Source: Candidatus Stramentimicrobium fermentans
Lineage (GTDB): Bacteria > Atribacterota > Phoenicimicrobiia > Phoenicimicrobiales > Stramentimicrobiaceae
Direction of reading: 5' to 3'
Assembly (NCBI GenBank): GCA_012520575.1
Contig: JAAYOB010000023.1
Location: 21,572 to 85,571, forward strand
Length of the DNA stretch: 64,000 bases
Part shown: one piece after another, positions 99 through 18,099 of the stretch
How the letters are laid out: each line of letters begins with the position of its first letter
Position numbering within the stretch: position 1 is the stretch's first letter
Made by a program: the position numbers and the translations under genes
Notes under the pieces: generated by a model
Database searches by the model: none
What the model saw: the letters and a program-made list of their open reading frames with translations, nothing else
Told to the model about the DNA's origin: nothing

Positions 99-1079
99 CT
101 AAAGGTTAACTCTTTTCTTAACAGTATTTTTCAGTTTTCTGATAATTTTAATTACCCCTTCCGGCAATACTTTTAACGCTATTCTTTTTATATTCGAATA
201 ATAGTATATTTTTTTAAAAAAGTTTGGGAAATTCCTATCCGGTGGCGAATAATGCTTCCAAGGGGTTTTTTTTAAATATTTATAATATTCCTTTTTTAAT
301 GGATGATTGTTAGTGAAATGCCACGGTTTAGGGTATGTGGTAAAATGTAAAATTGAAGGATTCTTCCTTGCTTCCATATACTCTGCTTTCGTGCAACGCA
401 ATTCATAAAGCCTTCGGATGAACATCGAAGACTGAACATTCCATGACAGGGATAGCTCTTTCCACCTGTTAAATAAAATTGCATTAAGCCCGTCCTGGTC
501 AACATAATTCACTTTGTCAGGATTATTTTTAATCCATTCTCTTGCCTTGTCACTAATACAATGATCTCTCCATCTCTCTAAATTTAACAGCAGAACGCCT
601 GAGTTAAAATATTTCGAACCAGCCGGCAGTCCCAACATATCCGGTAACCTATAATTTAAATCTTCTACTGCGGCTAGAAAGTATTCTGAAATATCAATAT
701 TCCACAATTTAGAAATATCTTCTTTTACAATTAAATCACAGTCTAAATATATTGCCTTTTTTATGGAATCTGTTAGTATCTCCGGAATTGATATTCTATA
801 GTAACAGGCAAGTACATGATTGCCTAATACTTTGAAGCCTTCATATTTTGAATTATCAATAGTTTTAAAAATAGCATTGGCTCCAGATTGCTCAATAATC
901 CTTTTTAAATTAATTTTATTACTTTTGGAAATAGAGTCTTCAATAATATAAATATCTAAATTCCTGTGAGCATTCATTCGAAAATTCTCAAGAAGGGAGT
1001 ATAACATTACACCTAAGTGTTGGGCATAATTATCATCAGTAACTGCAACAATATTAATTTTTTCATCATTTTCATTCAT
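99..1079 (-). CDS. Glycosyltransferase family 8 (GspA/WaaJ-like)
   Basis: Motifs DDNYAQH, YLDCDLIV (DxD), YFNSGVLL, DQDGLN and HFT..KPW, typical of GT8. Confidence 0.92.
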   Translation of the reverse strand: MNENDEKINIVAVTDDNYAQHLGVMLYSLLENFRMNAHRNLDIYIIEDSISKSNKINLKRIIEQSGANAIFKTIDNSKYEGFKVLGNHVLACYYRISIPEILTDSIKKAIYLDCDLIVKEDISKLWNIDISEYFLAAVEDLNYRLPDMLGLPAGSKYFNSGVLLLNLERWRDHCISDKAREWIKNNPDKVNYVDQDGLNAILFNRWKELSLSWNVQSSMFIRRLYELRCTKAEYMEARKNPSILHFTTYPKPWHFTNNHPLKKEYYKYLKKTPWKHYSPPDRNFPNFFKKIYYYSNIKRIALKVLPEGVIKIIRKLKNTVKKRVNL

Positions 1080-1216
1080 TTATTGTCCCCCTAAGAATTG
1101 TAACCATATTAAAAACAAAATTAAGAAGAGAAATTATTGATACTTTTATCGAGTTAAATTACACTTTTTTGAATATTTATATTTAGTTATTTGTTTATTG
1201 ATATATTTGCATTTCC

Positions 1217-3034
1217 CTATGATGCCGGCAGTTTTGCCATATCTCGGAACCGTTCATTTTTTTTAAGTAATTCTTCGTAGGTGCCCTGTCCCATAATCCG
1301 GCCTTTTTCCAAGATGTAGATCCGGTCACAGTCTTTCAAAGTACTGAGGCGATGAGCAATCATGATAACGGTTCTTGCCTTCGCCGCAGCATGTATAGCT
1401 TTTAATACCGCCTCTTCTGTAGCGCCATCCAGTGAACTGGTAGCCTCATCTAAGATTAACACTTCCGGATTACGATAGAGGGCACGAGCCAATCCGATAC
1501 GCTGCCGTTGCCCGCCGCTTAAACGAATTCCCCGCTCCCCGATAATAGTATCATACTTTTGAGGTAATTCCTTTTCGATAAATCCATCCAAGGCTGCGAT
1601 ACGGGCTACAAATTTTACCTGCTCATACGAAATATATTTATCCGGCACTCCAAAAGCAATATTTTTTAGTACGGTGTCGTCGCTTAAATATATTTCCTGA
1701 GGAACATAGCCAATTTTTTTCTGCCAAACAGCAATATTTTGATCGGTCAAAATCGTATCATCAATGATAATCCTGCCCTCTTGAGGAGTAAGTAAACCCA
1801 AAATAATATCAACAAGAGTGGTCTTGCCGCAGCCGGTAGGCCCGGCAAAACCAATGGTGTTATTTTTGAAGATAGTAAGGTTAATCTGTTTAATGACTTG
1901 AAAAGTTGAGCCCCCATAAGAAAAACTAATATTCTCCAGTTTAATGGTTTTATCAAAAGATAGTTGAAATTTTTCATTTGGTGAAGCAGGCACCGCTAAT
2001 TGCGACAATGGTTTAATGGCTACCATATCTTCATATATCTTGTCCACAATAGCGATATTGTAATAGACGATGCCTGCTGCGGCAAGAAGGCGATTTAGAG
2101 CAGGCAGGGTACGGTAGGCGGCGAAGGCATAGAGACTGAGTAAGGGTAAAAAATCGGTAACCTTCTCTCCGCAAGCAATCATAAAGAGAATAAAGAAGAT
2201 TATCCCGCCAAAGGCTACTGCTTCGAGCAGGTATCTTGGAATTTCTCTTACCACATGGGCAAAGACATTATGGCGAGTAAATTTTAAGGAAAAATTACTA
2301 TAATTTCGGAGAAAGTAGGATTCTATGCCCAGTGCTTTAGCGGTCTTAATGCCGGATAGGGCTTCATTGACTATTTTATATCGTTCCCTGTTTGCTTCTA
2401 ACCGTTCTCTTCCCGCTTCTTTCAGTCTTCTTTTGACAAAATAATTTATAAGTCCATAACTACCGCCCAAAAAGAAAATAACTCCCATGGTTATAGATAT
2501 ATCTACAATAAATAACATAATGAGTATTGCCAACACCATCAGGCCATTGATTATGATTTCAAATAAAGAAATTAGGAGTTGATTGGTAAGCTGATATATT
2601 TCTGATAAGACATTCTTTACTAGTTCACTGGTATTCTTGTGCAGGAAGTATTCATAGGGTTGGGAAAGATAAATGGTAAGCAGCCTTAGGGATAGGCCAT
2701 GGTTTTTACCGAGGGTGAATCTGGCTTTCCCCCAGGTAGTAATCGCCGAGATGACACTGGACAGTATTACAATAAGGAAAACTGTTATACCTAAAAAGAA
2801 TATAAAGGAATTAATGCCGGTAAAGTTTAATTTTTGGTAGATGAGCGAGAGCCATTTGTTCTGCTCGACTATATTGGGATTCATCACTGCATTAATAAAA
2901 GGAAAGATGCTGGCAACTCCAAATGCCTGGGCAAAAGCAGTAACCAAACTGGCAACAAAGACCAAGGCCGCCTGCTTGCGCTCCCGAGGAGTAAGTATTT
3001 CGTATATTTTTTTTAAGAAAGACTTTTGATTCAA
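1217..3034 (-). CDS. ABC exporter, fused permease/ATPase (PglK/MsbA-like, probable lipid-linked oligosaccharide flippase)
   Basis: N-terminal TM helices; Walker A GPTGCGKTT, LSGGQRQR signature, ILDEATSSLD, IAHRLST; glycan-locus context; TTG start. Confidence 0.85.
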   Translation of the reverse strand: MNQKSFLKKIYEILTPRERKQAALVFVASLVTAFAQAFGVASIFPFINAVMNPNIVEQNKWLSLIYQKLNFTGINSFIFFLGITVFLIVILSSVISAITTWGKARFTLGKNHGLSLRLLTIYLSQPYEYFLHKNTSELVKNVLSEIYQLTNQLLISLFEIIINGLMVLAILIMLFIVDISITMGVIFFLGGSYGLINYFVKRRLKEAGRERLEANRERYKIVNEALSGIKTAKALGIESYFLRNYSNFSLKFTRHNVFAHVVREIPRYLLEAVAFGGIIFFILFMIACGEKVTDFLPLLSLYAFAAYRTLPALNRLLAAAGIVYYNIAIVDKIYEDMVAIKPLSQLAVPASPNEKFQLSFDKTIKLENISFSYGGSTFQVIKQINLTIFKNNTIGFAGPTGCGKTTLVDIILGLLTPQEGRIIIDDTILTDQNIAVWQKKIGYVPQEIYLSDDTVLKNIAFGVPDKYISYEQVKFVARIAALDGFIEKELPQKYDTIIGERGIRLSGGQRQRIGLARALYRNPEVLILDEATSSLDGATEEAVLKAIHAAAKARTVIMIAHRLSTLKDCDRIYILEKGRIMGQGTYEELLKKNERFRDMAKLPAS

Positions 3035-3184
3035 TACAATAATCTGCCTTTCCCTTTTCTGCCTGATTAATCAACTGTTATTTATTTTTACTATTTAAAT
3101 ATACAATCGGTTTGATACGCTTTTGGTTTTCCTATAATAGTGCAAGTGTACTATTTGGCACTTGGCAATTACAGGTTATCCAAC

Positions 3185-4537
3185 CTATCTCCGCCCCATG
3201 CCGATGTAAGTGAATCCTATTTTCCTTACTTTGTCCGGTTCGTATAGATTGCGCATATCGAGAAGAATCGGATTGTTCAACAATTTTTTTATTTTTGGTA
3301 GATTCAGATTACGGAATTGATTCCATTCGGTCAAGATAACTAAGGCATCACTATTTTGGGCTGTCTCATATTCATCAGCACAATAAGTAAGTGCGGAAAA
3401 GATTTTCCCGGTATTCCCCATAGCCATAGGGTCAAAGCATCTTATTTGTGCACCTTTTTGCAATAGCATTTTAATGATATCAAGGGCAGGGGATTCTCGG
3501 ACATCATCTGTGTTTTGTTTAAAAGCAAGTCCTAAAATAGCAATATTCTTTCCGTTAAGGTTGCCCAGGGCTTTTTCTATCTTAGCAACTACTATTTGCC
3601 GTTGTCTTTCATTAACCTCCCCAACCGCTTTGAGTAGTTTAAAATCATAGCTATGATCTTTAGCGGTAGACAGAAGAGCTCTGGTATCTTTAGGAAAACA
3701 GGAGCCGCCAAAACCGGGGCCCGGGTGTAGAAATTTGGGACTGATACGTCCGTCCATGCCCATAGCACCGGCAACTTGGTGTACATCCGCTCCTACTCTA
3801 TCACAAAGATTGGCTATTTCATTGATAAAAGATATCTTAGTTGCCAAAAAGGTATTACAGGCGTATTTAATCATCTCTGCAGTTTCCAAGGTAGTAAAGA
3901 TAAAGGGAGCATCTAAGAGATAGAGGGGTCGATAAATTTCCTGCATAATTTGCCTAGCTCGCTCTGTTTCGTAGCCTATAACTATTTTATCCGGATGGGT
4001 GAAGTCATAGATAGCCGAGCCTTCCCTCAAAAATTCCGGATTGGAGATAATATCAAAAGGAGCGGGTTTAGGCTGAGACTGCTTCTTCTCTAAATTCCCC
4101 ATAACGACAGAAGAAAGGGAATTAGCGATAATTTGCTTTAATTTACAAGCGGTACCCACAGGAACGGTACACTTATTGACTATAACTTTATAATCATTTA
4201 AAGAACAGGCAATTTCTCCGGCTACCTCTTCTACCTGGCTAAGGTCGGCAGAGCCATCATTTTTTGAGGGTGTGCCAACCGCAATAAAGATTACCTGTGA
4301 TTGCCCAACTGCCCGTTTAAGATTAGTACTAAAAGACAAACGTCCATCAGCAACATTTTTCGAGATAAGGGATTCCAAATTGGGCTCATAGATAGGTACT
4401 TTTCCTGAATTAAGCAATTCAATTTTACTACCATCTTTGTCTACGCAGGTTACTTGAAGCCCAAAATCAGCCAGGCAAGTACCTGTTACCAACCCAACAT
4501 AACCGGTTCCAATTACGGAAATTTGCATATTCCCCAA
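3185..4537 (-). CDS. ugd: UDP-glucose 6-dehydrogenase
   Basis: GTGYVG Rossmann motif, SNPEFLREG, catalytic GFGGSCFPKD, GLAFKQNTDDVRES. Confidence 0.93.
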   Translation of the reverse strand: MGNMQISVIGTGYVGLVTGTCLADFGLQVTCVDKDGSKIELLNSGKVPIYEPNLESLISKNVADGRLSFSTNLKRAVGQSQVIFIAVGTPSKNDGSADLSQVEEVAGEIACSLNDYKVIVNKCTVPVGTACKLKQIIANSLSSVVMGNLEKKQSQPKPAPFDIISNPEFLREGSAIYDFTHPDKIVIGYETERARQIMQEIYRPLYLLDAPFIFTTLETAEMIKYACNTFLATKISFINEIANLCDRVGADVHQVAGAMGMDGRISPKFLHPGPGFGGSCFPKDTRALLSTAKDHSYDFKLLKAVGEVNERQRQIVVAKIEKALGNLNGKNIAILGLAFKQNTDDVRESPALDIIKMLLQKGAQIRCFDPMAMGNTGKIFSALTYCADEYETAQNSDALVILTEWNQFRNLNLPKIKKLLNNPILLDMRNLYEPDKVRKIGFTYIGMGRR

Positions 4538-4597
4538 ACCGTCCTTTAATTGATTAATTTGTTAATTAGTATATTACCGATTGCCTTTCGATATATA

Positions 4598-5037
4598 TTA
4601 TATACTGCCTTGCATATTTTTGTTTCTTTGCCAAAACTCTGTAAAAAATGCTACAAAAATACCTAAGATAAGAATAACCTTAATACTCCGGAAATAGCTG
4701 GGTTAAATTTTTTATTAGGCTTTATGGGAGTTCTAGGAAGCAGATCTAATCTACCTGCTTGTAAAGAGTGATAATTTGAATTATAAATTGATTCTATTTC
4801 TTGATACTCTTTTGACAATTCTTCATAAATCGCCATAGCTGAAGCATAGTCTCTTTGCAGCTGTGTTTCTTCTATTTTATTGATAATTAATTCAGATAAT
4901 AATTCTTTTGTTTCCGTATCAAGGTTTTCTATTTCCGCTATTAACAGTTCTTTTTCTACTGCCATTATCTGTATCATTCTAAAGTATACTGTATGCTTAC
5001 TTTTAATATTATAAGGCAAAGCAATCCTAGCTAGCAT
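4598..5037 (-). pseudogene. Remnant of a Wzz/GumC-type polysaccharide chain-length determinant (C-terminal part only)
   Basis: Coiled coil then PIKPNKK..AISGVL. Removing the tandem TAAGA duplication at 4664-4673 restores LFLGIFVAFFTEFWQ, the typical second TM, ending at TAA 4598. The N-terminal TM is missing. Confidence 0.75.
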
Positions 5038-5049
5038 TGATTAATTGAT

Positions 5050-5871
5050 TTAGTATACCAAAAATGCTTGCAATACTTCTTTGGTTATCTTATCCTGCAC
5101 AAAAACTACCCCATAATATCTGTCGAGCTCAGCATCTTCATCTTCTATCTCCGCCAGATCCAGATGTGAGACAAAGTCAAATTTTTTTTCTTCCAATGGA
5201 GCTAACTGACAGATATCCTGCTCTCCAAAGATATCTTTTACTAAATAAAAGAATTCGCTCTCATCGCCTTCATAGTAGACCATCCCGCCTAACATCAGAT
5301 TCTGCAATTGCGAATGGCTCCGGTTGAGAACACTTCCCCGTATAATGATTTTTCCGCCGCAGATCTCCATCATTACTTTTATCTCTACCGGCGTAGATTC
5401 GGCTAATTGTTTCTCTATAATACTCCGATATGCGGCAATATTCTCATCTATGTCGGCACAATCACTATGCAAGCCATGCACGCGCTCTGCCAGTCCGTTA
5501 AAGAAGGCATCGGGGGTGCCTTTTATACCGCTGCCGGTATACCAATCATAACGGGTATTGGCCTGCGGAATATCATGCCCATCCCCCCAGATGTGTGCCT
5601 CAACCAGAATTACCGTCCCCGGCTCATAGCTCCAGGCAAGATCTTCCAAGCAAAAAGCGGCTTTGGGACATACCGTACAGTCCTCATTAACAAAAAGCTC
5701 TATAAGTACATTGCGCGGTACTTCAGCACATAGATTGTTTTGTATATTTTCTACTGAAGGTTTCTCGGCTCCTTGACCAAATGCAAAATTTATAATTGTG
5801 GTACAGGCTATTATAAAAACAATAATATAAACTGCAACTAAATGCTTATTTTTCTTCATATCTCTTTGCAC
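5050..5871 (-). CDS. Exported thioredoxin-fold (CxxC) protein, Omp28-related
   Basis: Signal peptide; VLIELF..DCTVCP; cis-Pro-loop-like GTPDAFFNG; C-terminal beta domain ending VVFVQDKITKEVLQA. Confidence 0.7.
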   Translation of the reverse strand: MQRDMKKNKHLVAVYIIVFIIACTTIINFAFGQGAEKPSVENIQNNLCAEVPRNVLIELFVNEDCTVCPKAAFCLEDLAWSYEPGTVILVEAHIWGDGHDIPQANTRYDWYTGSGIKGTPDAFFNGLAERVHGLHSDCADIDENIAAYRSIIEKQLAESTPVEIKVMMEICGGKIIIRGSVLNRSHSQLQNLMLGGMVYYEGDESEFFYLVKDIFGEQDICQLAPLEEKKFDFVSHLDLAEIEDEDAELDRYYGVVFVQDKITKEVLQAFLVY

Positions 5872-5959
5872 TATTTCCTGATTATTCTCCGATAAAGTTG
5901 AGTTAGAACATTAGAACATGCCATTCATCATAGTATTTCCTCATCAGGTATGTAAGCCC

Positions 5960-8044
5960 TCACTTTTCTGCTTCTAAATTTATTAACAAAGTTTTTGAGT
6001 ATCCGGAAATTTTGCTTTCCGGTGAAATCTCAATAACTTTTTTTAAGGCCTCTATTGCCTTTTCTTTTTTATCCTGGTTTAGATATGCCCCTGCTAATCC
6101 ATAATAAGCTTCAGCGCTATCAGAGTTATTAAAAGTTACTCTTTCAAATTGGTGAACAGCTTTATTATATTCCCCAGCTGTCAGATAAAGATTACCTAGC
6201 TGCAATAGTAAGGGCTCCATATTTTTTTTGTTCTCCTGATATTCTATTCCTCGCTCTAAATAAGGAATCGCTTTATTAGTCTCTCCCACTTTAATAAATT
6301 GAACTGCTATATTCTGGGGTAGGCGATGATGATCAACATATTTTTCAGCTTTAAGAAGATATTCCAACGCAAGCTGATTTATGTCTTTGCTGGCTAAAAT
6401 ATTTCCTATATCAAAATACATTTCACCCTGCCAGGGATTCCATTTTAATCCCTTTTCGTATAGTTTTATCCCTTTGTTGTAATTTCCAAGAGCAATTTGC
6501 TCATTACCATAATACCAGTAAACTCTGGACATGAATGGTTTTATTAGCAAAAAACTGGTAAAGACTGCAAGTACAATAATGAAAAATGACCATATAGTCT
6601 TTTTAATTACTGGACCATAATTATTAATAAACTTTTTCTCTATTGATTTGTTGACTTTACCAGTGATAAAAGCAGACTCATTACCATGTTTATCATTTAA
6701 TTCTTGAGAGACAATAATCTGGGCATTGGTAAGACCTATAAACATCCAGAATAAAGATGATGAGGCGGCTAACTGCAAAGGAAATCCAAAAATAGCATCC
6801 AGCAATACTGCCATTATCCCACCCATTAATGAAATAACAATACTTTTACCACTCTCACTTATACTGGGAAGATTTATTAAAATATTTCGGCAATAAATGA
6901 ATAAGATACTTAAAAAGAGCAATAACCCAATAATTCCTATTTCCGACCACATTTGCAAATACTCATTGTGGGCTTGCACTGCATAACCATGCGGATAAAT
7001 TTCTCTATTATCTCTTTGTGCGAAAAATTGGGCTTGATATTTCAGAGTGTTATATCCGTATGTGCCCAACCCTGAACCAAATAAAGGGTAATCCTTAATC
7101 ATCATCCAGGTGGATTTCCATATTGCGACTCTTCTTAGGATAGAACTGCCAGAAGACAAAGATTCAATAGTAATTCTTTGTTTCAATTTTCCAATAGGGG
7201 TATTCTCTCTATTCAAAGGATGGGGAATATAAATAATAGTTGTTGCTATTATAATGACTAAAATAAAACATAGCATCAGTTTTTTATAGATTTGTTTATC
7301 AAACAAATTTGCGGCACTTTTATAATAACACAAAATCACTATGGGAATAGCAATAAAAACACCCAGATAGGAGCCCCTGGTAAAAGTAAGAAAGAGGGTA
7401 ACGCCCATTACCCCTGCAGCAAAAAATAAGAAAAAACGATTTATTATTTTTACTTTTGAAAAAATTAGACCTAAAGTTAAGGATAAAGGCAAAATAATGT
7501 ATTCTGCAAAATAATTGACATTTCCAAAAAGACCAAAGACTTTGTTTCTTCCAATATTCTCTGTCCAAAATTCGAAATCAATTCCAAGGTACTGTAATAT
7601 ACCATATATTCCCAATCCTGTTCCCATAATAACTATTACGAATAGAAGAATATGTATATCTTTTTGTCTATACATAGAATTGGTAACAAGAAAATAAACA
7701 ATTGGGCCCGCCAAAAAAAAGGGCAAAGCCAGAATAGTTCTCTGAACATTGATGGTCCAAAATAATGACGATATCATATAAAGTATATAGATGAAAACAA
7801 ATACGTCGAGACTTGATTTTTTCAGGTGGTATTCTTCAAAGAAAACAACTCTTAGCAAAATAAAAGCTAATCCTATTAAGGCAGTTAATTGAAAGATTAA
7901 GTTTTTTATGGGGTCAAATACCGGTATACTATACGGATAAAATGCAATTGGCAATAGAATAACATTCAATAACAATATTAAGAAGACACACTTGTCCCAC
8001 TTTAAGCAATGATTGTCTATAATTAAACTATTTTTAACATTCAT
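5960..8044 (-). CDS. O-antigen ligase / O-oligosaccharyltransferase family protein (Wzy_C) with C-terminal TPRs
   Basis: Many TM helices; FGNVNYFA, LTFTRGSY, R..IWKST..MIKDYPLFGSGLG, AHNEYLQ; TPR repeats at the C-terminus. Confidence 0.88.
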   Translation of the reverse strand: MNVKNSLIIDNHCLKWDKCVFLILLLNVILLPIAFYPYSIPVFDPIKNLIFQLTALIGLAFILLRVVFFEEYHLKKSSLDVFVFIYILYMISSLFWTINVQRTILALPFFLAGPIVYFLVTNSMYRQKDIHILLFVIVIMGTGLGIYGILQYLGIDFEFWTENIGRNKVFGLFGNVNYFAEYIILPLSLTLGLIFSKVKIINRFFLFFAAGVMGVTLFLTFTRGSYLGVFIAIPIVILCYYKSAANLFDKQIYKKLMLCFILVIIIATTIIYIPHPLNRENTPIGKLKQRITIESLSSGSSILRRVAIWKSTWMMIKDYPLFGSGLGTYGYNTLKYQAQFFAQRDNREIYPHGYAVQAHNEYLQMWSEIGIIGLLLFLSILFIYCRNILINLPSISESGKSIVISLMGGIMAVLLDAIFGFPLQLAASSSLFWMFIGLTNAQIIVSQELNDKHGNESAFITGKVNKSIEKKFINNYGPVIKKTIWSFFIIVLAVFTSFLLIKPFMSRVYWYYGNEQIALGNYNKGIKLYEKGLKWNPWQGEMYFDIGNILASKDINQLALEYLLKAEKYVDHHRLPQNIAVQFIKVGETNKAIPYLERGIEYQENKKNMEPLLLQLGNLYLTAGEYNKAVHQFERVTFNNSDSAEAYYGLAGAYLNQDKKEKAIEALKKVIEISPESKISGYSKTLLINLEAEK

Positions 8045-8156
8045 TTGGTATTGCCGTTAATATAAAAGATAGATTTTTACCTTTTTCCTGTTAGTAATGC
8101 TGTAAATAATGAAATAAGATATCGTACCCTATCTTTATTTTCATCTTAGTGTAAAG

Positions 8157-8582
8157 CTATTTAACATTGACTATTGCTTGTGCCCACTGACCGGCAGTGC
8201 CGCCATAATTAACCCATACTTCATATCTACCTATTTTGTTATAGTCCTTAATGTTAAAAGTTGCGGTACGTGAATTTGTCCGCGGAGATATATTACATGC
8301 GGCACCGCAAGCAATGCATTGATACACACAGGTCCATTTTATTTGCGATACATCAATATTGATTATTTTATTATCAGAATTATAGGCTTTTACTTCAAAT
8401 CTTTGGGTCTGATTGGCTTTCATCTCTGCTTGGGATGGAAGCACTTTCAGATATTTTATCTCAGTGTTGCTTTCATCGTATTCATCCTCAGATATAGGAG
8501 GAGTTGGTCTAGTGCATCCTGCTACTAAAAAAAACATTAAAGCTATTAACACTATAATAGTTAAATTAAGCATTTTTCTCAC
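8157..8582 (-). CDS. Lipoprotein with a bacterial Ig-like domain and a 4-Cys cluster
   Basis: Lipobox LVAGC; Ig-like pattern LKVLPSQAEMKANQTQRFEVKAY..WT; CVYQCIACGAAC; GGAGG RBS before GTG. Confidence 0.7.
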   Translation of the reverse strand: MRKMLNLTIIVLIALMFFLVAGCTRPTPPISEDEYDESNTEIKYLKVLPSQAEMKANQTQRFEVKAYNSDNKIINIDVSQIKWTCVYQCIACGAACNISPRTNSRTATFNIKDYNKIGRYEVWVNYGGTAGQWAQAIVNVK

Positions 8583-8781
8583 AAAAGGATTCCTCCTTAC
8601 CTTTTTTTAGTTTTTTAAAGGTTTCCCCTGCTGACGCTCGCGCAAAGGGCTGAAGATATGTTCATTTAAAATTTTAATTGATTTGGATTATGCTATATAT
8701 TGTCAGCAAATCCTTTCAATCAAACAATGAATATGGCAATTACTACAATACTTCCCTTTATCCTATTGTAAATGAGAATCA

Positions 8782-8817
8782 GGAATTGTGTCTGGATTTT
8801 AACTCAGCCACAATTCC
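8782..8817 (-). terminator. Stem-loop after the thioredoxin-like lipoprotein gene
   Basis: GGAATTGTGtCTG ... CAGcCACAATTCC inverted repeat; no clear U-tract. Confidence 0.4.
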
Positions 8818-8899
8818 ATACCATACATAGAACTATACTTATTCTCTTATTTAATTCTTTAACCAATCCATCCATTATTAATTTGAAATGGAGGTTATG

Positions 8900-9640
8900 T
8901 CAGTTTATAAAAAGAGATTGATGCACTCTTTTTTTACCTGTTGTTTCCTGTACAAAGATAACCCCGTCAAAGCCCTTCCCATCCCAATTAATATCTGTTA
9001 AAGTTATGCTAAAATTTTTTGTTTCTCCAACTGCCAAGGCAGGCACAGGTACCTTCTCTTTTTCAAAAATATAAGTCGCCGCATAGGCAAGGTTGCCGCT
9101 TCTTTTAAAAGTCATTCCATTTATAACCATATTGGAAAGCGTGGTAGTGCCTATATTTTTTATAGTTCCGCTTATCACAGAATTTTGTCCATTTTGAATT
9201 CTATTAGCTTGAATAGAAACCTTGGGAGGAATATTTAATTGAGCATCAATTCTATTCTTTAAAGTAGAGTAATCATGGGAGCCTGCAAGATAACTAGCAA
9301 GGCCATTAAATATAGTATGTGGAACTGTCGAAGCAAGATTGTACCAGTCATAATGTCTTGTTTTAGATTCAGGTATGGAGTAGATACCCCAGGGGATTAT
9401 CTCTACCAGAATCATTTCGTCTCGACTGTATTCTGATGCTAATTTCTCTAAATGTGGTTTTAGTTTAGCACAAACAGGGCAATTATTGGTTACAAAGGTC
9501 TCCACTAACACTACCTGTTTTACTGCTTCTTCGCCTTCGCCTTCGCCTTCTGTTCCGTTAGGGGGAGTTACGCCGTCACATCCTGTAATAGCAAAAATTG
9601 TGAAAAATATTATAAGCAAAAATACTAATGTTTTTTTCAT
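8900..9640 (-). CDS. Thioredoxin-fold (CxxC) lipoprotein, Omp28-related
   Basis: Lipobox ITGC; VLVETF..NCPVCA; TVPHTIFNG; C-terminal GVIFVQE..KKRVHQS; paralogous to 5050..5871; AAGGAG spacing favours ATG 9640. Confidence 0.75.
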   Translation of the reverse strand: MKKTLVFLLIIFFTIFAITGCDGVTPPNGTEGEGEGEEAVKQVVLVETFVTNNCPVCAKLKPHLEKLASEYSRDEMILVEIIPWGIYSIPESKTRHYDWYNLASTVPHTIFNGLASYLAGSHDYSTLKNRIDAQLNIPPKVSIQANRIQNGQNSVISGTIKNIGTTTLSNMVINGMTFKRSGNLAYAATYIFEKEKVPVPALAVGETKNFSITLTDINWDGKGFDGVIFVQETTGKKRVHQSLFIN

Positions 9641-9723
9641 TCGATTCATCTCCTTAAATATTTAATGCTATCTTAAAATACTTTCCTATTCTTTTCTATT
9701 TTAGAAAAACAATATTCAATCAG

Positions 9724-10458
9724 TTACCTAATCACATTAATCCGGGCTCCCGCAGTCAGAGAATTGTATTGTACTCTAATATTTCTTAAACCCGGCGACT
9801 CTGGAGCTGTATAGATAGTCTCCAATCCAACCTCTGGTACCAATTCACCAACCATGCACGGTTTACTCCATACTGTTAATTTTTCATCTAAAGGTACTTC
9901 ATTAACTGAAAATAAATCATATCCTTTTACTATAAAAGATAATTTTTCCCCTACCCTTAAGGTGGCTTCTATCGGCACAACAGCAATAGAAAAAAGCTCC
10001 TGCATCTCATAGTTTACAGTACAATAGAAGGGATTTTGACCTTCAGCAGGTAAAATGTTTCCTGCTTCATCTTTAAAGCGAACAAATATATTTTTTATAC
10101 CGGAAGTTCTTACTGTACCAAAATATCCATTGGCAATGTTAAATTGGTCATATTTTTTAGAAAATCTAATCCATTCAGACCAATCTTCACCATTACCGCT
10201 AAAGGACATGTATTCAATATCGTCTTCCTCGACCAATATTTCCATCTCAGGTGTGCAGTCTTTTATAATATCAGGGCTACCCTTAATAGATAAAAAATTT
10301 TTGGTACCACTATCACCCTCAACAGCACTATTGCTGTGATCATCTGCATTATGGTAGGAAATAAAAGGATATTGCTGACAGGTACAGATAAAAAAGGGCG
10401 TTGAAAAGCATATAAAAATGACAATCAATTTTTTAAAAACGAATGGATATTTCTTCAT
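9724..10458 (-). CDS. Exported protein (possible lipoprotein) with a C-terminal Ig-like domain
   Basis: MKKY..hydrophobic..ICTC N-terminus; C-terminal SIAVVPIEATLRVGEKLSFIVKGYD..VWS resembles 8157..8582; start uncertain (TTG 10494 is the alternative). Confidence 0.6.
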   Translation of the reverse strand: MKKYPFVFKKLIVIFICFSTPFFICTCQQYPFISYHNADDHSNSAVEGDSGTKNFLSIKGSPDIIKDCTPEMEILVEEDDIEYMSFSGNGEDWSEWIRFSKKYDQFNIANGYFGTVRTSGIKNIFVRFKDEAGNILPAEGQNPFYCTVNYEMQELFSIAVVPIEATLRVGEKLSFIVKGYDLFSVNEVPLDEKLTVWSKPCMVGELVPEVGLETIYTAPESPGLRNIRVQYNSLTAGARINVIR

Positions 10459-10636
10459 GCAACTTATTATATAAGACCAAAGTATTATTAGCAAGTATTC
10501 GTTATAAGTATTCCATACCTGATTGGTTATAGTTACAGGGTGCCATTTTAAGCAAAGCAGCTTTCAATCCCATGAATATGACACGGATAATGTTTAACAA
10601 AATTGATTAAACAGATTTTTGTATTTTGCATTCTCC

Positions 10637-10685
10637 ACAATAAGGAAAGAGAAAGATTTTAAAAATCTTTCTCTTTCCTTATTGT
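10637..10685 (-). terminator. Perfect 49-bp palindrome, probable terminator or processing hairpin after the Cys-rich lipoprotein gene
   Basis: 24-bp arm ACAATAAGGAAAGAGAAAGATTTT and its exact reverse complement, separated by 1 nt. Confidence 0.65.
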
Positions 10686-10774
10686 TATTTCTAATTCAAT
10701 ACTATATTGTTTAGTTTCTAATTTAATGTTTTTGTAATAATATATAGTATTACCGCTTAATTGATTAATCTACT

Positions 10775-11776
10775 CTAATCGCAACAATTCCCTGCAGGAA
10801 GACAAGTACCAATGACTCCATCTGCTGTTGCACCGACAACACAGGAGGTATCAGTTGATTCTGTTTCCCAAGTGGTACATGCACAATTCAGTTTATCCGC
10901 ACAGTATCTTGTTACTGTAACCGCACATCCTGTTTCCCCTGTTTGTGTCATGGTAGCATAATATTCTACTTCATTTCCTACATTATCAACTAAAGTAGCA
11001 ATAACGTAATAGAGTATTTTATTATTTGTAACGTTTCTAAGAGGTAAGCAGCTTGTTTTTGTATCTATCGGACAATCAGTTCCGCTGTCAGACCAGATGG
11101 GGTCATAACAAGTTGTGGCACAGCATTTGTCAAAGGGATTTTTATTATAAATAGCAATTGACCAGCCAGCCAATCCGGAACAATCATCACCGCAGCATTC
11201 TGCATCTGCTTTACAATCTTGTGAAGTTACCTGGCTCTTAAAGGTGAATTCACAATCTTCACATTCACAATCAGCTCCCTTTACTTCAATACAGGCAAAT
11301 GGTGGCAAGCAATCTACGATAACCGGTACCTGGATGCAGGTATCTTCATCACATTCCCCGGCTACTACAGTAACATAGGATGCACAGCATTCACTTGTAA
11401 GATTGCAGCTATCTGGGTCGCCGCAAGGAGTACAAGCAAATTTGTATTTACCGGACCAGACGGTATTATCCTCATTGGGCCATAGGACTATCTGAGTGCC
11501 AGAGGTTGGTTGTTTGCTATAATCACCAAGACAATCACTGACAAAAACACGGGCGTTAACTACCGGTTTCGGGAAGGTAACTGTAATATCATGGTTACCA
11601 CCGGAAACATAATTTTTTCCACCAATTTCAACGGCACCGTCTATTTCGACCACAACTCCGTCAACTGGATCATCGGGATCATCGGGATCTGGTCCCGGTC
11701 CCGGGGGTAAACAGCCGACAAAGAGAAATGCGGTCAAGGCTGCGATTAAAAGTAGTACTAAAAATTTCTTATTCAT
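10775..11776 (-). CDS. Cysteine-rich lipoprotein (31 Cys in 333 aa), unknown family
   Basis: AAGGAG RBS before ATG 11776; signal MNKKFLVLLLIAALTAFLFVG-C; Pro/Asp linker; many CC, CxC and CxxC motifs; ends GNCCD. Confidence 0.85.
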   Translation of the reverse strand: MNKKFLVLLLIAALTAFLFVGCLPPGPGPDPDDPDDPVDGVVVEIDGAVEIGGKNYVSGGNHDITVTFPKPVVNARVFVSDCLGDYSKQPTSGTQIVLWPNEDNTVWSGKYKFACTPCGDPDSCNLTSECCASYVTVVAGECDEDTCIQVPVIVDCLPPFACIEVKGADCECEDCEFTFKSQVTSQDCKADAECCGDDCSGLAGWSIAIYNKNPFDKCCATTCYDPIWSDSGTDCPIDTKTSCLPLRNVTNNKILYYVIATLVDNVGNEVEYYATMTQTGETGCAVTVTRYCADKLNCACTTWETESTDTSCVVGATADGVIGTCLPAGNCCD

Positions 11777-11967
11777 TAAGAATTCTCCTTCCATTTTTTT
11801 CAATGAATTATGTTTTTTATTTTTCCATGGATTTTCCTGAGAAATTAATTAATTCCTCTTTTTCCGGCTTCTCTGCTCTTCAGCTGTAATTTAAAAGTAT
11901 TTTACAGATAAATGCCGTATGTCGACCTCATACAGGCTAAGATGCCAGCTTTTATATACATTTTTGT

Positions 11968-11997
11968 ATTTTATATTACCTTCCCTTTAAATGTCAA
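11968..11997 (-). promoter_or_regulatory. Sigma70-type promoter of the Cys-rich lipoprotein gene
   Basis: TTGACA-N18-TAAAAT about 190 bp upstream of the ATG. Confidence 0.65.
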
Positions 11998-12180
11998 GTA
12001 TTACAATCAAAATCCAAGCGAAAGTAATTTTCAGTTATCGGTTAGGGACCACAGGTTTTCAGGTAAAGAGTGCAGGTTAACAACCATTTGTCACCTGTGA
12101 ACATTTTTCTTTATCTACGCTCAACTTAAAAAACTATTTAGATAGCTGATTAATCTATTTTCAAGGTACGGATACTAATA

Positions 12181-13185
12181 CTATTTAAAGGGCGATGAGC
12201 CGCTTTCATTATCAGCAGATGTATCTCCACTGCCGGAAGAAAAGGGCGATGAGCCGCTTTCTCCCGCGGGAGCGGCAGGACCGGAGCCGGAAATAATGCT
12301 GCCGTAAGAGGCCGGAATATCCGGACTTGCCGTGATATTTCCGGTACCGTCTGCGTAAGTATCATGGGAAGATGTACCGGATGAAACTTGAACAGCGATT
12401 TGTGCCGTGATAAGGTCCTGTATATTCATACAGATATTTTCCATACTATTCCCGTTATCCAGCGCTTGATGAAATATGGTTTCCAATTTATCGCTACCGA
12501 TGCCTAACTCTGTGGCTCTCAGGCTAAGGCCGGCCAGCTCTTTGGTAACTTCTTCCACTTCTTTCCAGCTTTTGCCCTGTTCGCTGCTTATTTCCAGGAC
12601 CCGTTCCAGTGCATTTGAAGACACACCGTTAGCCAGAGAATCGGCTAAAACATCGATTATCTCTTCCCGTTTTTCATCCGAGAGCTGCTTTCCGGCTAAA
12701 AGGATTTGGGCGGTCTCCATATTTTCCAATTTCCGGTTCAGTACCTCTATGATGGCTTTTGCCTCTACGTTTTTGACTAAACCTTCTTTAACCTTATTGA
12801 TAAGGGGCTTTTCCGAGATACCGATGTCTTTGGCTGAAATGGCGGTATCTAAAAATTTCTTTACATTGTAGGGATCCACCTTATTATCGATACTCGCCTT
12901 TATGATGGATAAGGTGTCTTCTTCCGAGATACCTTTTTCTATTGCCTCCCGGGTACTGTTTGCCACCATTCTCTTTTGGAAGTCGCTATAAGAAGACTTT
13001 TCCAAATATTGCTCCAATTGTTCCAAATCAATGTCATCTGCCGGGGCAGAAAAGGCCGGGAAAATTAGAAACAAAAAAAGAAATAGAGAGATTAACAGTT
13101 GAACGTTCAGCTTAGATAATATTCCGTAACCCTTATTCTGTTTTCCTTTTATTTCTTTTTTCATAGTGTCTTTAATGTCTTTCAT
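12181..13185 (-). CDS. Secreted, mostly helical hypothetical protein with a Ser/Gly-rich tail
   Basis: Signal peptide ending PAFSA; repetitive helical segments (EKGISE, DIGISE, ANGVSS); tail with duplicated ESGSSPF. Confidence 0.7.
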   Translation of the reverse strand: MKDIKDTMKKEIKGKQNKGYGILSKLNVQLLISLFLFLFLIFPAFSAPADDIDLEQLEQYLEKSSYSDFQKRMVANSTREAIEKGISEEDTLSIIKASIDNKVDPYNVKKFLDTAISAKDIGISEKPLINKVKEGLVKNVEAKAIIEVLNRKLENMETAQILLAGKQLSDEKREEIIDVLADSLANGVSSNALERVLEISSEQGKSWKEVEEVTKELAGLSLRATELGIGSDKLETIFHQALDNGNSMENICMNIQDLITAQIAVQVSSGTSSHDTYADGTGNITASPDIPASYGSIISGSGPAAPAGESGSSPFSSGSGDTSADNESGSSPFK

Positions 13186-13322
13186 CTTACATTCCGTTTT
13201 ATTTCACTCTGTTTTTGGTTTTTCTAGGTTTTCGGTCTTCGGTTGTCAATGTCGGTTTTCGCACTCTCGTATATTTTTACACTCTTAAACTAACTGATTA
13301 ATGGATTAGCGATACCGATTAA

Positions 13323-14003
13323 TCAATTGCAAACACATTTGCTGATTTCCAGAACCGCATTCTTATTACCGAATCCGTCATTAACATATTGGTATGCCGA
13401 CGGATCGGGCACCCATTTCTGCCCGTCAATAATAAACATATACTCATAGCGCCCCGGCTCTAACTTCAGAGTAGTAGTCCAGAGGCCGTCGTGGTTAACA
13501 TCGGTGAGCGGATTTCGATTGGGATCCCAGTCATTGAAGTCGCCAACTACGGCAATACTCTGTACTTGAGTGGCGTCCGCTCTCATGGAAAAGGTAATAT
13601 CGGTTAGGCCATCGGGGCAATACTGTTCTACCGGGTGGAAAAATGCATTATAGCTGAATAGAACCGCCACCAGCACCATAGTAACGGCGGCTCCCCATTT
13701 TAAGGAGACCCGGGGTAGAGCCAGGAGGTTGCTTATTCTCTCCAACCAGCCCGGAGCGGCTGTTTGCTCTTCCCGTTCAATTTTTTGCATAACTCTGCCC
13801 GTAAAGTCGGGAGACGGCTCCTCATCCAGCAAGGAGAAAGAAGCTAAACTATGGAAAAGCTCCTGCCAGCGGGCAAATTCTTTCTGACAGACAGGGCAAG
13901 AGACAAGATGTTCTTCTATCTCGATCTTCTCCTCTGCCGAAAGCCGGGCTTCCAGGTAATCCTCTATATAGTTTTGAATGTTTTGACATTCTTTTTCTTG
14001 CAT
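13323..14003 (-). CDS. Zinc-finger (ZAS) anti-sigma factor with a TM helix and a C-terminal CBM48/AMPK-type glycogen-binding domain
   Basis: EEHLVSCPVC (HxxxCxxC); TM WGAAVTMVLVAVLFSY; VVGDFNDW..GLWTTTLKLEPGRYEYMFIIDG..WVPDP..DGFGNKNAVL. Confidence 0.88.
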   Translation of the reverse strand: MQEKECQNIQNYIEDYLEARLSAEEKIEIEEHLVSCPVCQKEFARWQELFHSLASFSLLDEEPSPDFTGRVMQKIEREEQTAAPGWLERISNLLALPRVSLKWGAAVTMVLVAVLFSYNAFFHPVEQYCPDGLTDITFSMRADATQVQSIAVVGDFNDWDPNRNPLTDVNHDGLWTTTLKLEPGRYEYMFIIDGQKWVPDPSAYQYVNDGFGNKNAVLEISKCVCN

Positions 14004-14135
14004 TATCGAGTATACTTAAGGGCTTTCTCCCCTTAAAAACTCCTTTAATTAATATTTTCCAGATATTGTATCTGATTTAAAACTTTAGAAATATGAAGTT
14101 AAGAAACTACTTTTAAATTCTACCTTCTACTTAAT

Positions 14136-14163
14136 GATACGGAAGAATTGAGAGAATGTTACA
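14136..14163 (-). promoter_or_regulatory. ECF-sigma-type promoter upstream of the anti-sigma gene
   Basis: TGTAAC-N16-CGTATC, matching the AAC/CGT signature of Bacillus SigW/SigX/SigM-type promoters. Confidence 0.6.
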
Positions 14164-14205
14164 TGGATTGTTTAAATATTAAACAAATAAAATTTATCCC
14201 TCTAT

Positions 14206-14832
14206 TTATTCTTTATTTTCCTGTTCCTGTTCCTGTAACATATCTTTGAGCTCTACTCTGGCACGGTGCAAGCGCACCTTCACGGAATTCAGAGTGATAT
14301 TAAGAATTTTAGAAATTTCGTAATAGGAAAGGTTTTGTATATGACGCAGAATAATAATCTCCCTATGGGAAAGCGACAAGGCGTTAATGGCTGACTGCAT
14401 GGCAAATCTGTTCTGCTTGCGAATCTGCCGCTCTTCAGGGTCTTCAGCCAACTCGGCAGAGTTTGGGTATAGCGGACTCCCTGCCTCTTGATAGTTTTCG
14501 GGCTGAGCAGAAAAAGATGCGGTCAAATCCTGCTTTCTAATCCTATCGCGAATGGTATTAAGGGTAATCTGATAAAGCCAGCTGGAGAAGGAATAAGAAG
14601 GCTTATATTGGTGCAGTGAGCGGTAGGCCTTTAGAAAAGACTCCTGGGCGATGTCTTCACTGTCATGATAATTAGCGGTCATGCGCAGCGCCAGCTGATA
14701 GACCATATTCTTATATTTCTCCACTAAATAGGCAAAGGCATCACTGTTTCCGGCCTGACATAATTCTATTATCTTAAGGTCATTATCATGAGTGTGAGCG
14801 GCATTAAAATCCAAGCGATTTTTTATATTCAT
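14206..14832 (-). CDS. ECF RNA polymerase sigma factor (SigW/RpoE-like)
   Basis: Region 2 DSEDIAQESFLKAY..FSSWLYQITLN; region 4 LSYYEISKIL..SVKVRLHRAR. Confidence 0.93.
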   Translation of the reverse strand: MNIKNRLDFNAAHTHDNDLKIIELCQAGNSDAFAYLVEKYKNMVYQLALRMTANYHDSEDIAQESFLKAYRSLHQYKPSYSFSSWLYQITLNTIRDRIRKQDLTASFSAQPENYQEAGSPLYPNSAELAEDPEERQIRKQNRFAMQSAINALSLSHREIIILRHIQNLSYYEISKILNITLNSVKVRLHRARVELKDMLQEQEQENKE

Positions 14833-14883
14833 CTTATCGATTTTCGATTTCGGTTTTTCAAGTTATTCTTAAGGATTTTCTTC

Positions 14884-16134: not shown

Positions 16135-16480
16135 TACTGTTCTCCTTTTATTTATACTTCTCCGGGATAAGCATAACTACACAACTAAGCAATTATTATA
16201 TTATATTTTTGTATTTAGTTTTTCCGGGATAATCATTTGCCTATATAATCTATGAATTGACAAAGCTGAACAATATTTTTAAGGTCTTATATACCCCATC
16301 CCGATTCCAATCTATTTCTGAATATTAATGAAACAAAATATCATATCTACAAAGCCGGTAATGGAAACCGATTTTTTTCAGGCGAACTTCATAGGGGCAA
16401 TATGATTTCATCTCTTAATATTATCACAACATGGTATTTTAACTCAATAAGCGCATTATACCAGAATAACTGGTTCTGCT

Positions 16481-17398: not shown

Positions 17399-17469
17399 TA
17401 AGTATGTTATACATTATTATATCTTAAAAAGTCAAAAATAGATAAATGCTGTGAGAAGAAACAGGGTGA

Positions 17470-17553
17470 GGCTGCTTTAAAACTAATTTGCTTTCGCTCT
17501 GCCAGTAGCAATAATCAATCCAGCTCTTTCTTCCCAAAGTAAAGTAATCGCAT
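17470..17553 (-). pseudogene. Remnant of a Txe/YoeB-family toxin
   Basis: TAATG overlap with the antitoxin stop. Correcting a 5-bp duplication (AAAGT x2, 17536-17545) and a 1-bp deletion gives MRLLWEERAWIDYCYWQSESKLVLK; homology then ends. Confidence 0.7.
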
Positions 17554-17815
17554 TACTCTTCCTCAACCAAGTCATGCTCACTAAGTTTTGCTCGCCCTTC
17601 CTTTATATCTTTAATAACCTGCTCCAAATACCTAATATTATTTTCAGAATAAAAGGGATTAGCAGAAATCTCAAAAGGTATTCGCTTTTCACGGGCTACT
17701 TTTTTGGCAAAAATAGTAAAGGCAGCTGTCAGAGAAAGCCCTAAATCTGAACAGACCTTTTCCATATTTTTTTTAAATCTTTATCCATTCTAAAATTAAC
17801 CATTGTTTTTGCCAT
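17553..17815 (-). pseudogene. RelB/DinJ-family antitoxin, frameshifted in an A8 tract
   Basis: GGAG RBS; MAKTMVNFRMDKDLKK, then a frameshift in the 8-A run (17767-17774) into MEKVCSDLGLSLTAAFTIFAKKVAREKRIPFEI..PFYSENN. Confidence 0.8.
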
Positions 17816-18099
17816 AAACTCTACTCCTCTCCTTGTGATTTTAATTTATCAAGGTGTAAAGCATTTATCAAGCATATTCCTTATACCAATACTAATGCGG
17901 CACGAAAAATGCTTTTCTTTTTTCCGGTCATCGCGAGAACTGTTGAAAACAGTTTGCGGTGAACTCATACTCTGCTGCCTGCATGGAAGAAAATAATTTT
18001 ATCTAAAAATATTTTATGCTATACTAATGGATAATCTTTAAATATTACATTAAGTTTAATGAATAGCTGCAACAAAAAATACTAAAAGGGAAGCAACTT

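Follow-up and report, generated by a model that had tools for sequence, protein, structure and literature searches.

The 64,000-nt stretch of Candidatus Stramentimicrobium fermentans DNA analysed here (the window, to which all coordinates refer) contains a conserved block of genes centred on a gene for a cysteine-rich lipoprotein. Downstream of it lie genes for two thioredoxin-fold proteins (TrxA and TrxB), two putatively immunoglobulin (Ig)-like lipoproteins (IgL and IgS) and a Wzy_C-type glycan ligase with tetratricopeptide repeats (TPR), and upstream lie genes for an extracytoplasmic function (ECF) sigma factor, an anti-sigma factor and a secreted 334-aa protein (p334). The cassette is real, conserved and lineage-specific, being found in one order of Atribacterota. 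Our preferred reading, to which we assign a probability of roughly 45%, is that the cassette is dedicated to the folding and O-glycosylation of a major envelope lipoprotein.

An initial annotation, made from the nucleotide sequence, had described six of these genes, with a promoter, a perfect palindrome and adjoining glycan genes, as a system for an abundant disulfide-stabilised or metal-thiolate envelope layer. All the features it listed are present and co-oriented on the minus strand, the glycan genes included, and its six-gene layout was right, but the extension upstream to the ECF sigma and anti-sigma factors had been overlooked; as a whole, its interpretation is partly supported. Since the source genome (1.58 Mb, 50 contigs) is 98% complete, the gene absences reported below are not proven. 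Near-identical DNA is present in biogas-fermenter and anaerobic-digester metagenomes. The features are:

14206..14832, minus strand: ECF-type sigma factor, 208 aa (Sigma70_r2 2.2e-20, Sigma70_r4_2 2.4e-14)
14138..14163, minus strand: ECF-type promoter motif TGTAAC-N16-CGTA, between the sigma and anti-sigma genes
13323..14003, minus strand: anti-sigma factor with zf-HC2, a membrane span and an outer CBM48/AMPK1_CBM-like glycan-binding domain (Pfam)
12181..13185, minus strand: p334, secreted helical 334-aa protein with a Gly/Ser-rich tail, without family match
11968..11997, minus strand: sigma-70-type promoter of the cysteine-rich gene, TTGACA-18-TAAAAT (11/12 matches)
11777..11962, minus strand: conserved 5' leader of about 185 nt with AAGGAG at its end, probably structured (alignment of 9)
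10775..11776, minus strand: cysteine-rich lipoprotein, 333 aa from ATG 11776 (lipobox, 30 mature Cys)
10637..10685, minus strand: perfect palindrome, 24+24 nt, putative terminator or 3' stabiliser of the cysteine-rich mRNA
9724..10458, minus strand: IgL, putative Ig-like (Big_2-like) lipoprotein, 244 aa from M13 (ORF listed as 9724-10494)
8900..9649, minus strand: TrxA, CPVC lipoprotein, thioredoxin domain plus Ig-like beta-sandwich (CPVC at 9470-9481)
8157..8582, minus strand: IgS, small, putatively Big_2-like lipoprotein with CxxC (C89-C92, at 8307-8318)
5960..8044, minus strand: Wzy_C glycan ligase with C-terminal TPR (PF04932, 2.3e-24)
5050..5871, minus strand: TrxB, CTVC paralogue of TrxA (CTVC at 5668-5679; 7 Cys after a possible lipobox)
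99..5037, minus strand: start of the glycan cluster, with Wzz-like fragment, UDP-glucose dehydrogenase, fused ABC exporter and GT8 (Pfam)

Conservation of the cassette in relatives

The DNA around family members in related genomes was compared with the proteins of the window. The order ECF sigma factor, anti-sigma factor, p334 and cysteine-rich gene was found in seven loci (L009, L012, L013, L015, L017, L018 and L038), and three more show part of this upstream order before being cut by contig ends. A TrxA-like gene lies at most 4 kb downstream of the cysteine-rich gene in all eight loci with enough sequence (L009, L012, L014, L017, L018, L020, L021 and L038). The ligase follows in L009, L012, L017, L018, L020, L022 and L038, TrxB in L009, L012, L017, L018 and L038, and IgS in L009, L012, L014, L017 and L018. 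IgL is the least constant member, being present in five of the nine related loci with downstream sequence (L009, L012, L014, L021 and L039, the last a separate contig of genome G013 on which it lies beside TrxA/TrxB). The ligase gene stands directly after the cysteine-rich gene in three loci, and copy number varies, with two cysteine-rich copies in each of G016 and G007 and two ligases in G007. In L038, which belongs to a second family, the whole layout is kept around a cysteine-rich protein just 30% identical to that of the window and containing 24 Cys. The six genes, whose synteny had been proposed as a check, do co-occur and are syntenic in relatives, within one order of Atribacterota only.

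The same restriction was seen in counts over 86 genomes of the phylum, covering families f1 and f2 and five others. The cysteine-rich profile matched in 16/21 genomes of f1, 14/30 of f2 and 0/34 of the other five families, some of the weaker matches spanning only the signal peptide and linker, and the TrxA profile in 15/21, 21/30 and 0/34, respectively. Draft contigs end at or beside the cysteine-rich gene in L013, L016, L019, L033 and L040, so that failure to find the gene in a draft genome is weak evidence of its absence. The breaks would fit strain-level variation or multiple copies of the gene within communities.

The cysteine-rich lipoprotein

The ORF was listed with a TTG start at 11803, but the likeliest true start is the ATG at 11776, which lies behind AAGGAG and matches the homologues. 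The protein has a lipobox (FVGC), an acidic linker and a mature part of 311 aa in which 30 Cys were counted after the lipobox, the number initially annotated. Apart from the lipobox Cys, an alignment of 38 sequences shows 20 conserved Cys positions, of which 13 are invariant and 7 are kept in at least 90%. No Pfam or NCBIfam family matched the protein, nor did any PDB sequence at E <= 1. Unconserved cysteines and membership of a characterised family, either of which would have spoken against the initial annotation, were thus not found.

The pattern of cysteine gain and loss suggests how these residues are used. Among 112 aligned homologues, variable Cys columns change as pairs, the numbers of sequences with both, only the first, only the second and neither being 33/0/0/79, 91/0/1/20, 14/0/2/96, 4/0/0/108 (two pairs) and 14/1/3/94, counts that are inflated by the relatedness of the sequences. 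Several independent pairs that are present both or neither is the behaviour expected of disulfide partners. The mature Cys count is even in 94 and odd in 26 of 120 homologues. Judged from these sequences, the paired changes and the bias to even numbers favour disulfides over metal thiolates, so that of the two options initially left side by side the former has gained ground and the latter has lost it.

The AlphaFold2 model (pLDDT 79, pTM 0.75) is all-beta with three sandwich domains. The 50 best matches in each of two fold searches were all generic Ig, FN3 and filamin domains, of which the best reached Z 9.3 over 78 residues, and the model appears to allow no specific structural relative to be named. 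The HPI S-layer chain 8cka gave Z 7.4, which is the generic level, and neither SLH nor any other family was matched in Pfam or NCBIfam. When the cysteine-rich protein (residues 46-342) and IgS (residues 24-141) were modelled as a complex the score was 0.00, which weighs neither way on binding.

A profile search of 1.84 billion representatives found 246 clusters of the family at E <= 0.001. Of 10 longer members scanned, 6 carry surface-type domains beside the cysteine-rich module (Ice_binding, InlB B-repeat, CarboxypepD_reg, He_PIG and Big_9), and these adhesin-like domains are C-terminal. The domains suggest that the module may serve as a lipid-anchored stalk.

A common N-terminus, consisting of signal peptide, lipobox and (Glu-Gly)n or acidic linker, is seen in the cysteine-rich protein (11690-11740), in TrxA (9540-9590, minus strand) and in other lipoproteins of the lineage; profile searches therefore cross-match on the N-terminus alone. 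RT761_00907 of A. laminatus was also considered as a homologue. The gene of this lipoprotein is reported to be among the ten most expressed of that organism (Katayama et al. 2020, PMC7736352). It is probably unrelated, the family not having been found in the 34 genomes of the other five families.

Transcription of the cysteine-rich gene

The sequence TTGACA-18-TAAAAT, with 11 of 12 matches, is the best promoter-like site of the region. Since the region holds no excess of such sites over shuffled sequences (31 found, 31.5 +/- 6.6 in shuffles), the sigma-70-type promoter call rests on conservation: of the 9 upstream regions aligned, 8 have TTGAC and a TATA-like -10 element in this position. The promoter initially annotated here is thus the strongest candidate. 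In the leader between promoter and start codon (11777-11962), 83 columns are invariant among nine sequences. A multi-stem fold was predicted for it, of whose 30 pairs only 3 show compensatory changes; Rfam gave no match, and three strictly conserved motifs occur once in the genome, in this leader. The leader may stabilise or regulate the mRNA.

Beyond the stop codon, the arms of the palindrome (10637-10660 and 10662-10685), 24 nt each, are 100% complementary, as initially noted, and the RNA has a folding energy of -31 kcal/mol (z = -7.9); Rfam returned only chance microRNA-like matches far below threshold. Since 12 of 16 copies of the family have a perfect inverted repeat 3' of the stop codon, its arms measuring between 11 and 24 nt, the palindrome is probably a conserved terminator or 3' stabiliser.

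Four metatranscriptome runs were compared over positions 3000-18000 through their assembled contigs, whose depth is a poor measure of expression. Contig depths for the cysteine-rich gene and for the five genes downstream were 1367 and 4.6 to 7.5 in run X15, 138 and 5.1 to 6.6 in X16, 159 and 3.7 to 6.0 in X17, and 32 and 24 against 2.3 to 4.5 in X20. The contig of the cysteine-rich gene is thus 7 to 300 times deeper than those of the downstream genes in all four runs, with the step at the palindrome, and such steps between adjacent genes are not explicable by flat DNA contamination. To the extent that contigs can tell, the mRNA looks far more abundant than those of the accessory genes, in line with the abundant lipoprotein and lower-expressed accessories initially proposed. 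The upstream contig (11821-14117) had depths of 100 (X15), 27 (X16) and 24 (X17), part of which may stem from the leader. The contig break at 11821-11826 was considered as a transcript start and rejected: it is the edge of a leader element common to related strains, which would split the assembly graph anyway.

The ECF sigma factor, the anti-sigma factor and p334

The sigma factor has only Sigma70 regions 2 and 4 and adjoins a zf-HC2 membrane protein, which places it in the ECF type. The anti-sigma factor matched PF13490 (6.8e-8), PF16561 (7.7e-11) and PF02922 (2.9e-7). The motif TGTAAC-N16-CGTA, which we take to resemble ECF promoters, for example those recognised by SigW and SigX in B. subtilis, lies in the sigma/anti-sigma intergenic region of 7 of 7 relatives checked. 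It matches three times in the whole 1.58-Mb genome; the two other matches, inside genes or before no clear gene, were taken as chance. The motif was also found upstream of the second cysteine-rich copy in G016 (L009, 10606) and of the cysteine-rich gene in G085 (L038, 6030). RNA contigs of three runs end at 14117, near the motif, a weak hint. The gene for p334, a protein without family in Pfam or NCBIfam, lies directly upstream of the cysteine-rich gene in nine loci of relatives.

The ligase and the envelope genes of the window

The ligase matched PF04932 at 2.3e-24 (86.3 bits, cut-off 31.7) and has a C-terminal TPR, as in the initial annotation. It is the only Wzy_C protein of the genome, and full-length orthologues were found only in families f1 and f2. 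LpxA, LpxC, LpxD, LpxK and KdtA had no match in the 98%-complete genome, and LpxB reached 19.7 bits, below its cut-off; since families for lipid A synthesis were not found, the classical lipid A-core acceptor of a WaaL-type ligase is not in evidence. BamA and Lgt are present in the genome.

The glycan cluster is on the same strand and runs on for about 20 kb past the left edge of the window. Within and beyond that edge it encodes UDP-sugar dehydrogenases, a fused ABC exporter, GT8, GT2 and GT4 transferases, dTDP-rhamnose synthesis, a PglC-like initiating transferase and PglD-, PglE- and PglF-like enzymes, and donor pathway genes for an undecaprenyl-linked glycan are thus present. The ligase therefore stands where WsfB-like enzymes stand, as a Wzy_C protein with C-terminal TPR beside both the gene of an apparently abundant surface protein and a glycan cluster.

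Other envelope genes lie around the cassette. The Wzz-like ORF next to TrxB (4663-5037, minus strand) encodes 124 aa with the C-terminal GNVR part (E 8.8e-4, below cut-off); a full-length form of 408 aa is present in L038, and the copy in the window may be truncated. Lpt-like genes for an LptF/G permease, LptA/LptD_N-like and LptC-like proteins and an ABC ATPase (LptB-like) are located at 18100-24167 and 31410-32138, and BamA and Skp genes are also in the window. A 560-aa protein with an N-terminal SLH domain (28014-29696, minus strand) may serve as a tether between outer membrane and cell wall. Such SLH tethering occurs in other two-membrane bacteria without Braun lipoprotein.

These neighbours raise the question of whether the locus is a loose envelope island, in which the Wzy_C-TPR enzyme would ligate or polymerise a surface polysaccharide or a non-lipid-A lipoglycan handled by Lpt-like export, the thioredoxin-plus-Ig proteins would act in general redox or uptake functions, and the cysteine-rich protein would merely be an abundant neighbour. 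We regard this as doubtful. The Wzz-like ORF, with its full-length form in a relative, and the Lpt-like, BamA, Skp and SLH genes would all be at home in such an island, cassette gene order shifts between relatives, synteny does not extend to the downstream glycan genes in the loci compared, and TrxA-like genes occur in other contexts too. A loose association would not lead one to expect that the cysteine-rich, TrxA-like and ligase genes remain linked as the identity of the cysteine-rich protein falls from 60% to 30%, or that the cysteine-rich and TrxA families are equally narrow and full-length ligase orthologues limited to f1 and f2; nor were genes of lipid A synthesis found that would supply the classical ligase acceptor.

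The thioredoxin-plus-Ig proteins, the Ig-like lipoproteins and thiol redox in the genome

TrxA and TrxB are paralogues (29% identity, E 9e-23), and both consist of a thioredoxin domain and an Ig-like domain. In TrxA, which has the lipobox ITGC, C57 and C60 are invariant among 29 sequences while the two residues between them vary, and P110 is present in at least 90%. C57/C60 align with the CGPC of thioredoxin, and P110 with its IPT loop, the cis-Pro position. The profile of TrxA matches thioredoxins over positions 38-131 (E 6.7e-6) and the model (pLDDT 89.8) gives Z 10 to 12 with many thioredoxins, so that the thioredoxin folds initially assigned to the CPVC lipoprotein and, through its paralogy, to the CTVC protein are borne out. 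The TrxA orthologue in G016 (L009, 12817-13553) is split over three frames with an internal stop and is either a pseudogene or an assembly error. In G013 (L039, 3448-5724), a 758-aa protein that joins a TrxA-like N-terminus to He_PIG and a caspase domain lies beside the Trx cluster; a caspase-domain (Peptidase_C14) protein is also encoded in the window (25071-26054, plus strand).

IgL was initially annotated as an exported Ig-like protein. It is present, and all four aligned orthologues carry a lipobox, but it has no Pfam match, and the Big_2-like character of its C-terminal part, like that of IgS, comes from language-model or structure look-alikes and is a lead. Its true start is probably M13 (10458). 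This ATG (within 10456-10494) has no Shine-Dalgarno sequence and lies a few bases past the TATAAT of a promoter-like site, and the transcript may be leaderless or poorly translated. The four Cys noted earlier in IgS are present (C85, C89, C92 and C96), but only the inner CxxC is conserved (7 of 8 sequences), whereas the outer pair is variable and present both or neither (3 of 8). The IgS alignment was built from the relatives' loci, a word-based homologue search having given 3 proteins.

No matches to the DsbA, DsbB and VKOR families (PF01323, PF13462, PF02600 and PF07884) were found in the 98%-complete genome, whereas control genomes were detected. The sole membrane thiol-redox protein found is CcdA, which adjoins a CGWC thioredoxin-like protein and represents a reducing route; of the partners that had been suggested for a search, DsbB, VKOR and CcdA, this last is the only one found. 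By a crude genome-wide heuristic, exported-like proteins have no bias to even Cys numbers (49 even and 74 odd, against 144 and 210 in cytoplasmic-like proteins), and some 20 candidate lipoproteins (9 even, 6 odd) are too few to use. The lack of such a bias in exported proteins, together with the failure to find DsbA, DsbB or VKOR, indicates a dedicated rather than a general disulfide route, and TrxA and TrxB look dedicated to one substrate family.

The same background can be turned the other way, with the conserved cysteines binding metals (Zn, Fe, Ni or similar) or acting as redox-active thiols that CcdA-fed thioredoxin-plus-Ig proteins keep reduced. The anoxic habitat, the presence of CcdA with its CGWC partner where DsbA, DsbB and VKOR were not found, motifs such as C-x4-C-x3-C-x3-C in the cysteine-rich protein and the position of relatives' TrxA-like genes beside TlpA/AhpC-type redoxins are all consistent with this. 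In addition, HBP35, the closest solved relative, has reductase-type thioredoxin activity in vitro (insulin reduction assay) and binds hemin (PMC2907840). Such a role is nevertheless unlikely, since the cysteines are gained and lost in twos and their totals are mostly even, a pattern more suited to bonded pairs than to metal sites with four ligands. The protein, being a lipoprotein, is also exported in the unfolded state, and no known metal-binding family in Pfam or NCBIfam matches it.

Proposed function of the cassette

In the dedicated folding and O-glycosylation cassette that we favour, the major lipoprotein would be anchored by its lipid and carry, behind an acidic flexible linker, three beta-sandwich domains stabilised by about 10 or more disulfides. 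Its gene would be transcribed alone and at a very high level from the conserved sigma-70-type promoter, through the structured leader, to a transcript end at the strong hairpin, and the weakly expressed genes past the hairpin would mature or accompany the product. TrxA and TrxB would form or reshuffle its disulfides in a cell without DsbA, DsbB and VKOR, with IgL and IgS (which has its own CxxC) as partners or further substrates, and the Wzy_C-TPR enzyme, in the manner of WsfB or PglL, would attach to the protein the undecaprenyl-linked glycan made by the neighbouring Pgl-like cluster. The upstream ECF sigma factor and glycan-binding anti-sigma factor may tie the unit to envelope sensing. Of this model, the anatomy, conservation, synteny, folds, gene absences and relative RNA depth were observed, and the disulfides, the location, the action of one protein on another and the glycosylation are inferred. 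More speculatively, a strict anaerobe might run private oxidative folding in which two HBP35-like thioredoxin-plus-Ig lipoproteins, with some oxidant, would introduce 10 or more disulfides into its dominant lipid-anchored surface protein and, with WsfB-like O-glycosylation, build an ECF-controlled, disulfide-braced glycoprotein coat, peculiar to one order of Atribacterota and monitored by a glycan-sensing anti-sigma factor; we offer this wider picture as tentative.

Several observations weigh against the folding and glycosylation cassette. The digester habitat is strongly reducing, and neither an oxidant nor an oxidising partner was found, only the reducing CcdA route. The co-variation of the cysteines can partly reflect common ancestry, and 26 of the 120 homologues have odd numbers. 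In the TrxA orthologues compared, the inner residues of the CxxC vary freely, an unusual feature if the protein were a tuned oxidase. Relatives have several copies of TrxA-like genes, with up to 8 matches per genome, and copies at other loci adjoin an AhpC/TSA-type redoxin and a DUF1573 protein without a cysteine-rich gene, so that they are not exclusive to a cysteine-rich substrate; conversely, the extra cysteine-rich copies in G016 stand alone (L010 and L011). As to glycosylation, the linker of the window's cysteine-rich protein has no Ser or Thr, PglL_A is not among the 23 Pfam matches of the window at E <= 0.1, and the nearby Wzz-like and Lpt-like transport genes suit a polysaccharide or lipoglycan acceptor equally. 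Finally, the transcript depths were read from assembled contigs, which measure expression poorly.

Type V pili of Bacteroidota are built from lipoprotein precursors, and an abundant first gene followed by a terminator and weakly expressed Ig-like-fold lipoproteins might recall a type V-like pilus with the cysteine-rich lipoprotein as major subunit and the two Ig-like lipoproteins as minor or anchor subunits, but this is very improbable, as no type V pilin was listed among the generic domains that made up the 50 best structural matches of each search, and C-terminal adhesin-like domains in longer members suit a stalk, not a polymerising subunit.

Members of the Atribacterota abound in anoxic sediments, oil reservoirs and digesters; their envelopes have received almost no study. 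The cassette points to a likely major envelope protein in one order of the phylum, and offers a testable case of extracytoplasmic disulfide formation in an anaerobe without DsbA, DsbB or VKOR, which bears on the question of how cysteine-rich exported proteins are folded in such organisms and by which oxidant. If the preferred reading is true, the cassette would also be a candidate system for protein O-glycosylation in a two-membrane lineage that branches deeply and in which lipid A genes were not found. The abundant, fast-evolving lipoprotein could be a marker or antigen for tracking these uncultured cells. No account of the cassette was found in searches of the literature on Atribacter, its lipoproteins or cysteine-rich proteins, or DUF1223, and a term search of PMC11227167 and PMC10116835 gave nothing relevant.

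Comparison with known systems

The thioredoxin-plus-Ig proteins have structural precedents. The TrxA model matches HBP35 of P. gingivalis (5y1a) with Z 20.5 and rmsd 2.7 over 206 residues (Foldseek E 7.3e-8), the CxxC and the two-domain architecture being common to both, and the DUF1223 protein AGR_C_4864 of A. tumefaciens (2axo) with Z 16.8 over 188 residues (Foldseek E 2.9e-8); its sandwich domain matches an Omp28 domain (2r2c) with Z 9.9. The order of a thioredoxin domain followed by an Ig-like sandwich is that of the HBP35/DUF1223/Omp28 class. The curated families of this class are less well matched: NCBIfam Omp28 (NF033782) gave 7.4e-8 and 6.7e-7 on the two CxxC proteins, at 31.9 and 28.8 bits against a cut-off of 150, and PF06764 (DUF1223) gave 15 bits on TrxB against a cut-off of 30.7, with a precomputed match in 7 of the 120 homologues listed. 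TrxA and TrxB thus belong to this known structural class, outside its curated sequence families. HBP35 has a type IX secretion C-terminal domain, whereas TrxA starts with a lipobox and ends with the sandwich domain at residue 249, and TrxA and TrxB, unlike the genes of that class, are tied to a cysteine-rich lipoprotein gene.

Exported CxxC thioredoxin folds are also common to the DsbA/DsbB and DsbC/DsbD pathways, and CcdA, which is of the DsbD type, is found here. The cassette differs from these pathways in that DsbA, DsbB and VKOR were not found and in that TrxA and TrxB carry an Ig-like domain and a lipid anchor. Chlamydiae have a cysteine-rich outer membrane complex of OmcA, a lipoprotein, and OmcB. 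The likeness is that of a cysteine-rich envelope lipoprotein for which disulfide stabilisation is proposed; there is no sequence relationship (no Pfam or NCBIfam match), and the protein described here has three predicted Ig-like sandwiches and comes from a free-living anaerobe.

For the ligase, the nearest precedents are WsfB and PglL, both described as Wzy_C enzymes with C-terminal TPR (PMC2943079). The same source describes S-layer loci of Paenibacillus alvei and Geobacillus stearothermophilus (SpaA or SgsE with WsfB or WsaB), in which the gene of an abundant surface protein adjoins a glycan cluster whose terminal enzyme is a Wzy_C protein, in WsfB with a C-terminal TPR (PMC2943079). A Wzy_C enzyme with TPR, a glycan cluster and an abundant transcript are likewise found together here. 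Unlike the SLH-anchored lattice proteins of those S-layers, the putative target is a lipid-anchored cysteine-rich protein of a two-membrane cell. We know of no thioredoxin-like genes in those S-layer loci. PglL and PilO offer a second parallel, a Wzy_C enzyme encoded near its likely target: PglL homologues lie near the gene of the likely target in 21 of 31 cases, and PilO, too, lacks the PglL-specific motifs that flank Wzy_C (PMC3643930). The PglF/E/D/C-like genes for a bacillosamine-type sugar extend this likeness, whereas the putative target here is not a pilin and PglL_A is not matched.

The statement in the initial annotation that no named system has this layout thus holds for the layout, but not for its parts, as the CxxC proteins fall into the HBP35/DUF1223/Omp28 class and the ligase has a precedent in WsfB. 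What is new is the setting, an anaerobe without Dsb enzymes or detectable lipid A genes, the cysteine-rich family and the combination. The parts brought together in it are of known kinds: an Ig-like lipoprotein, thioredoxin-plus-Ig proteins that fall in the HBP35/DUF1223 class and a Wzy_C-TPR enzyme resembling WsfB.

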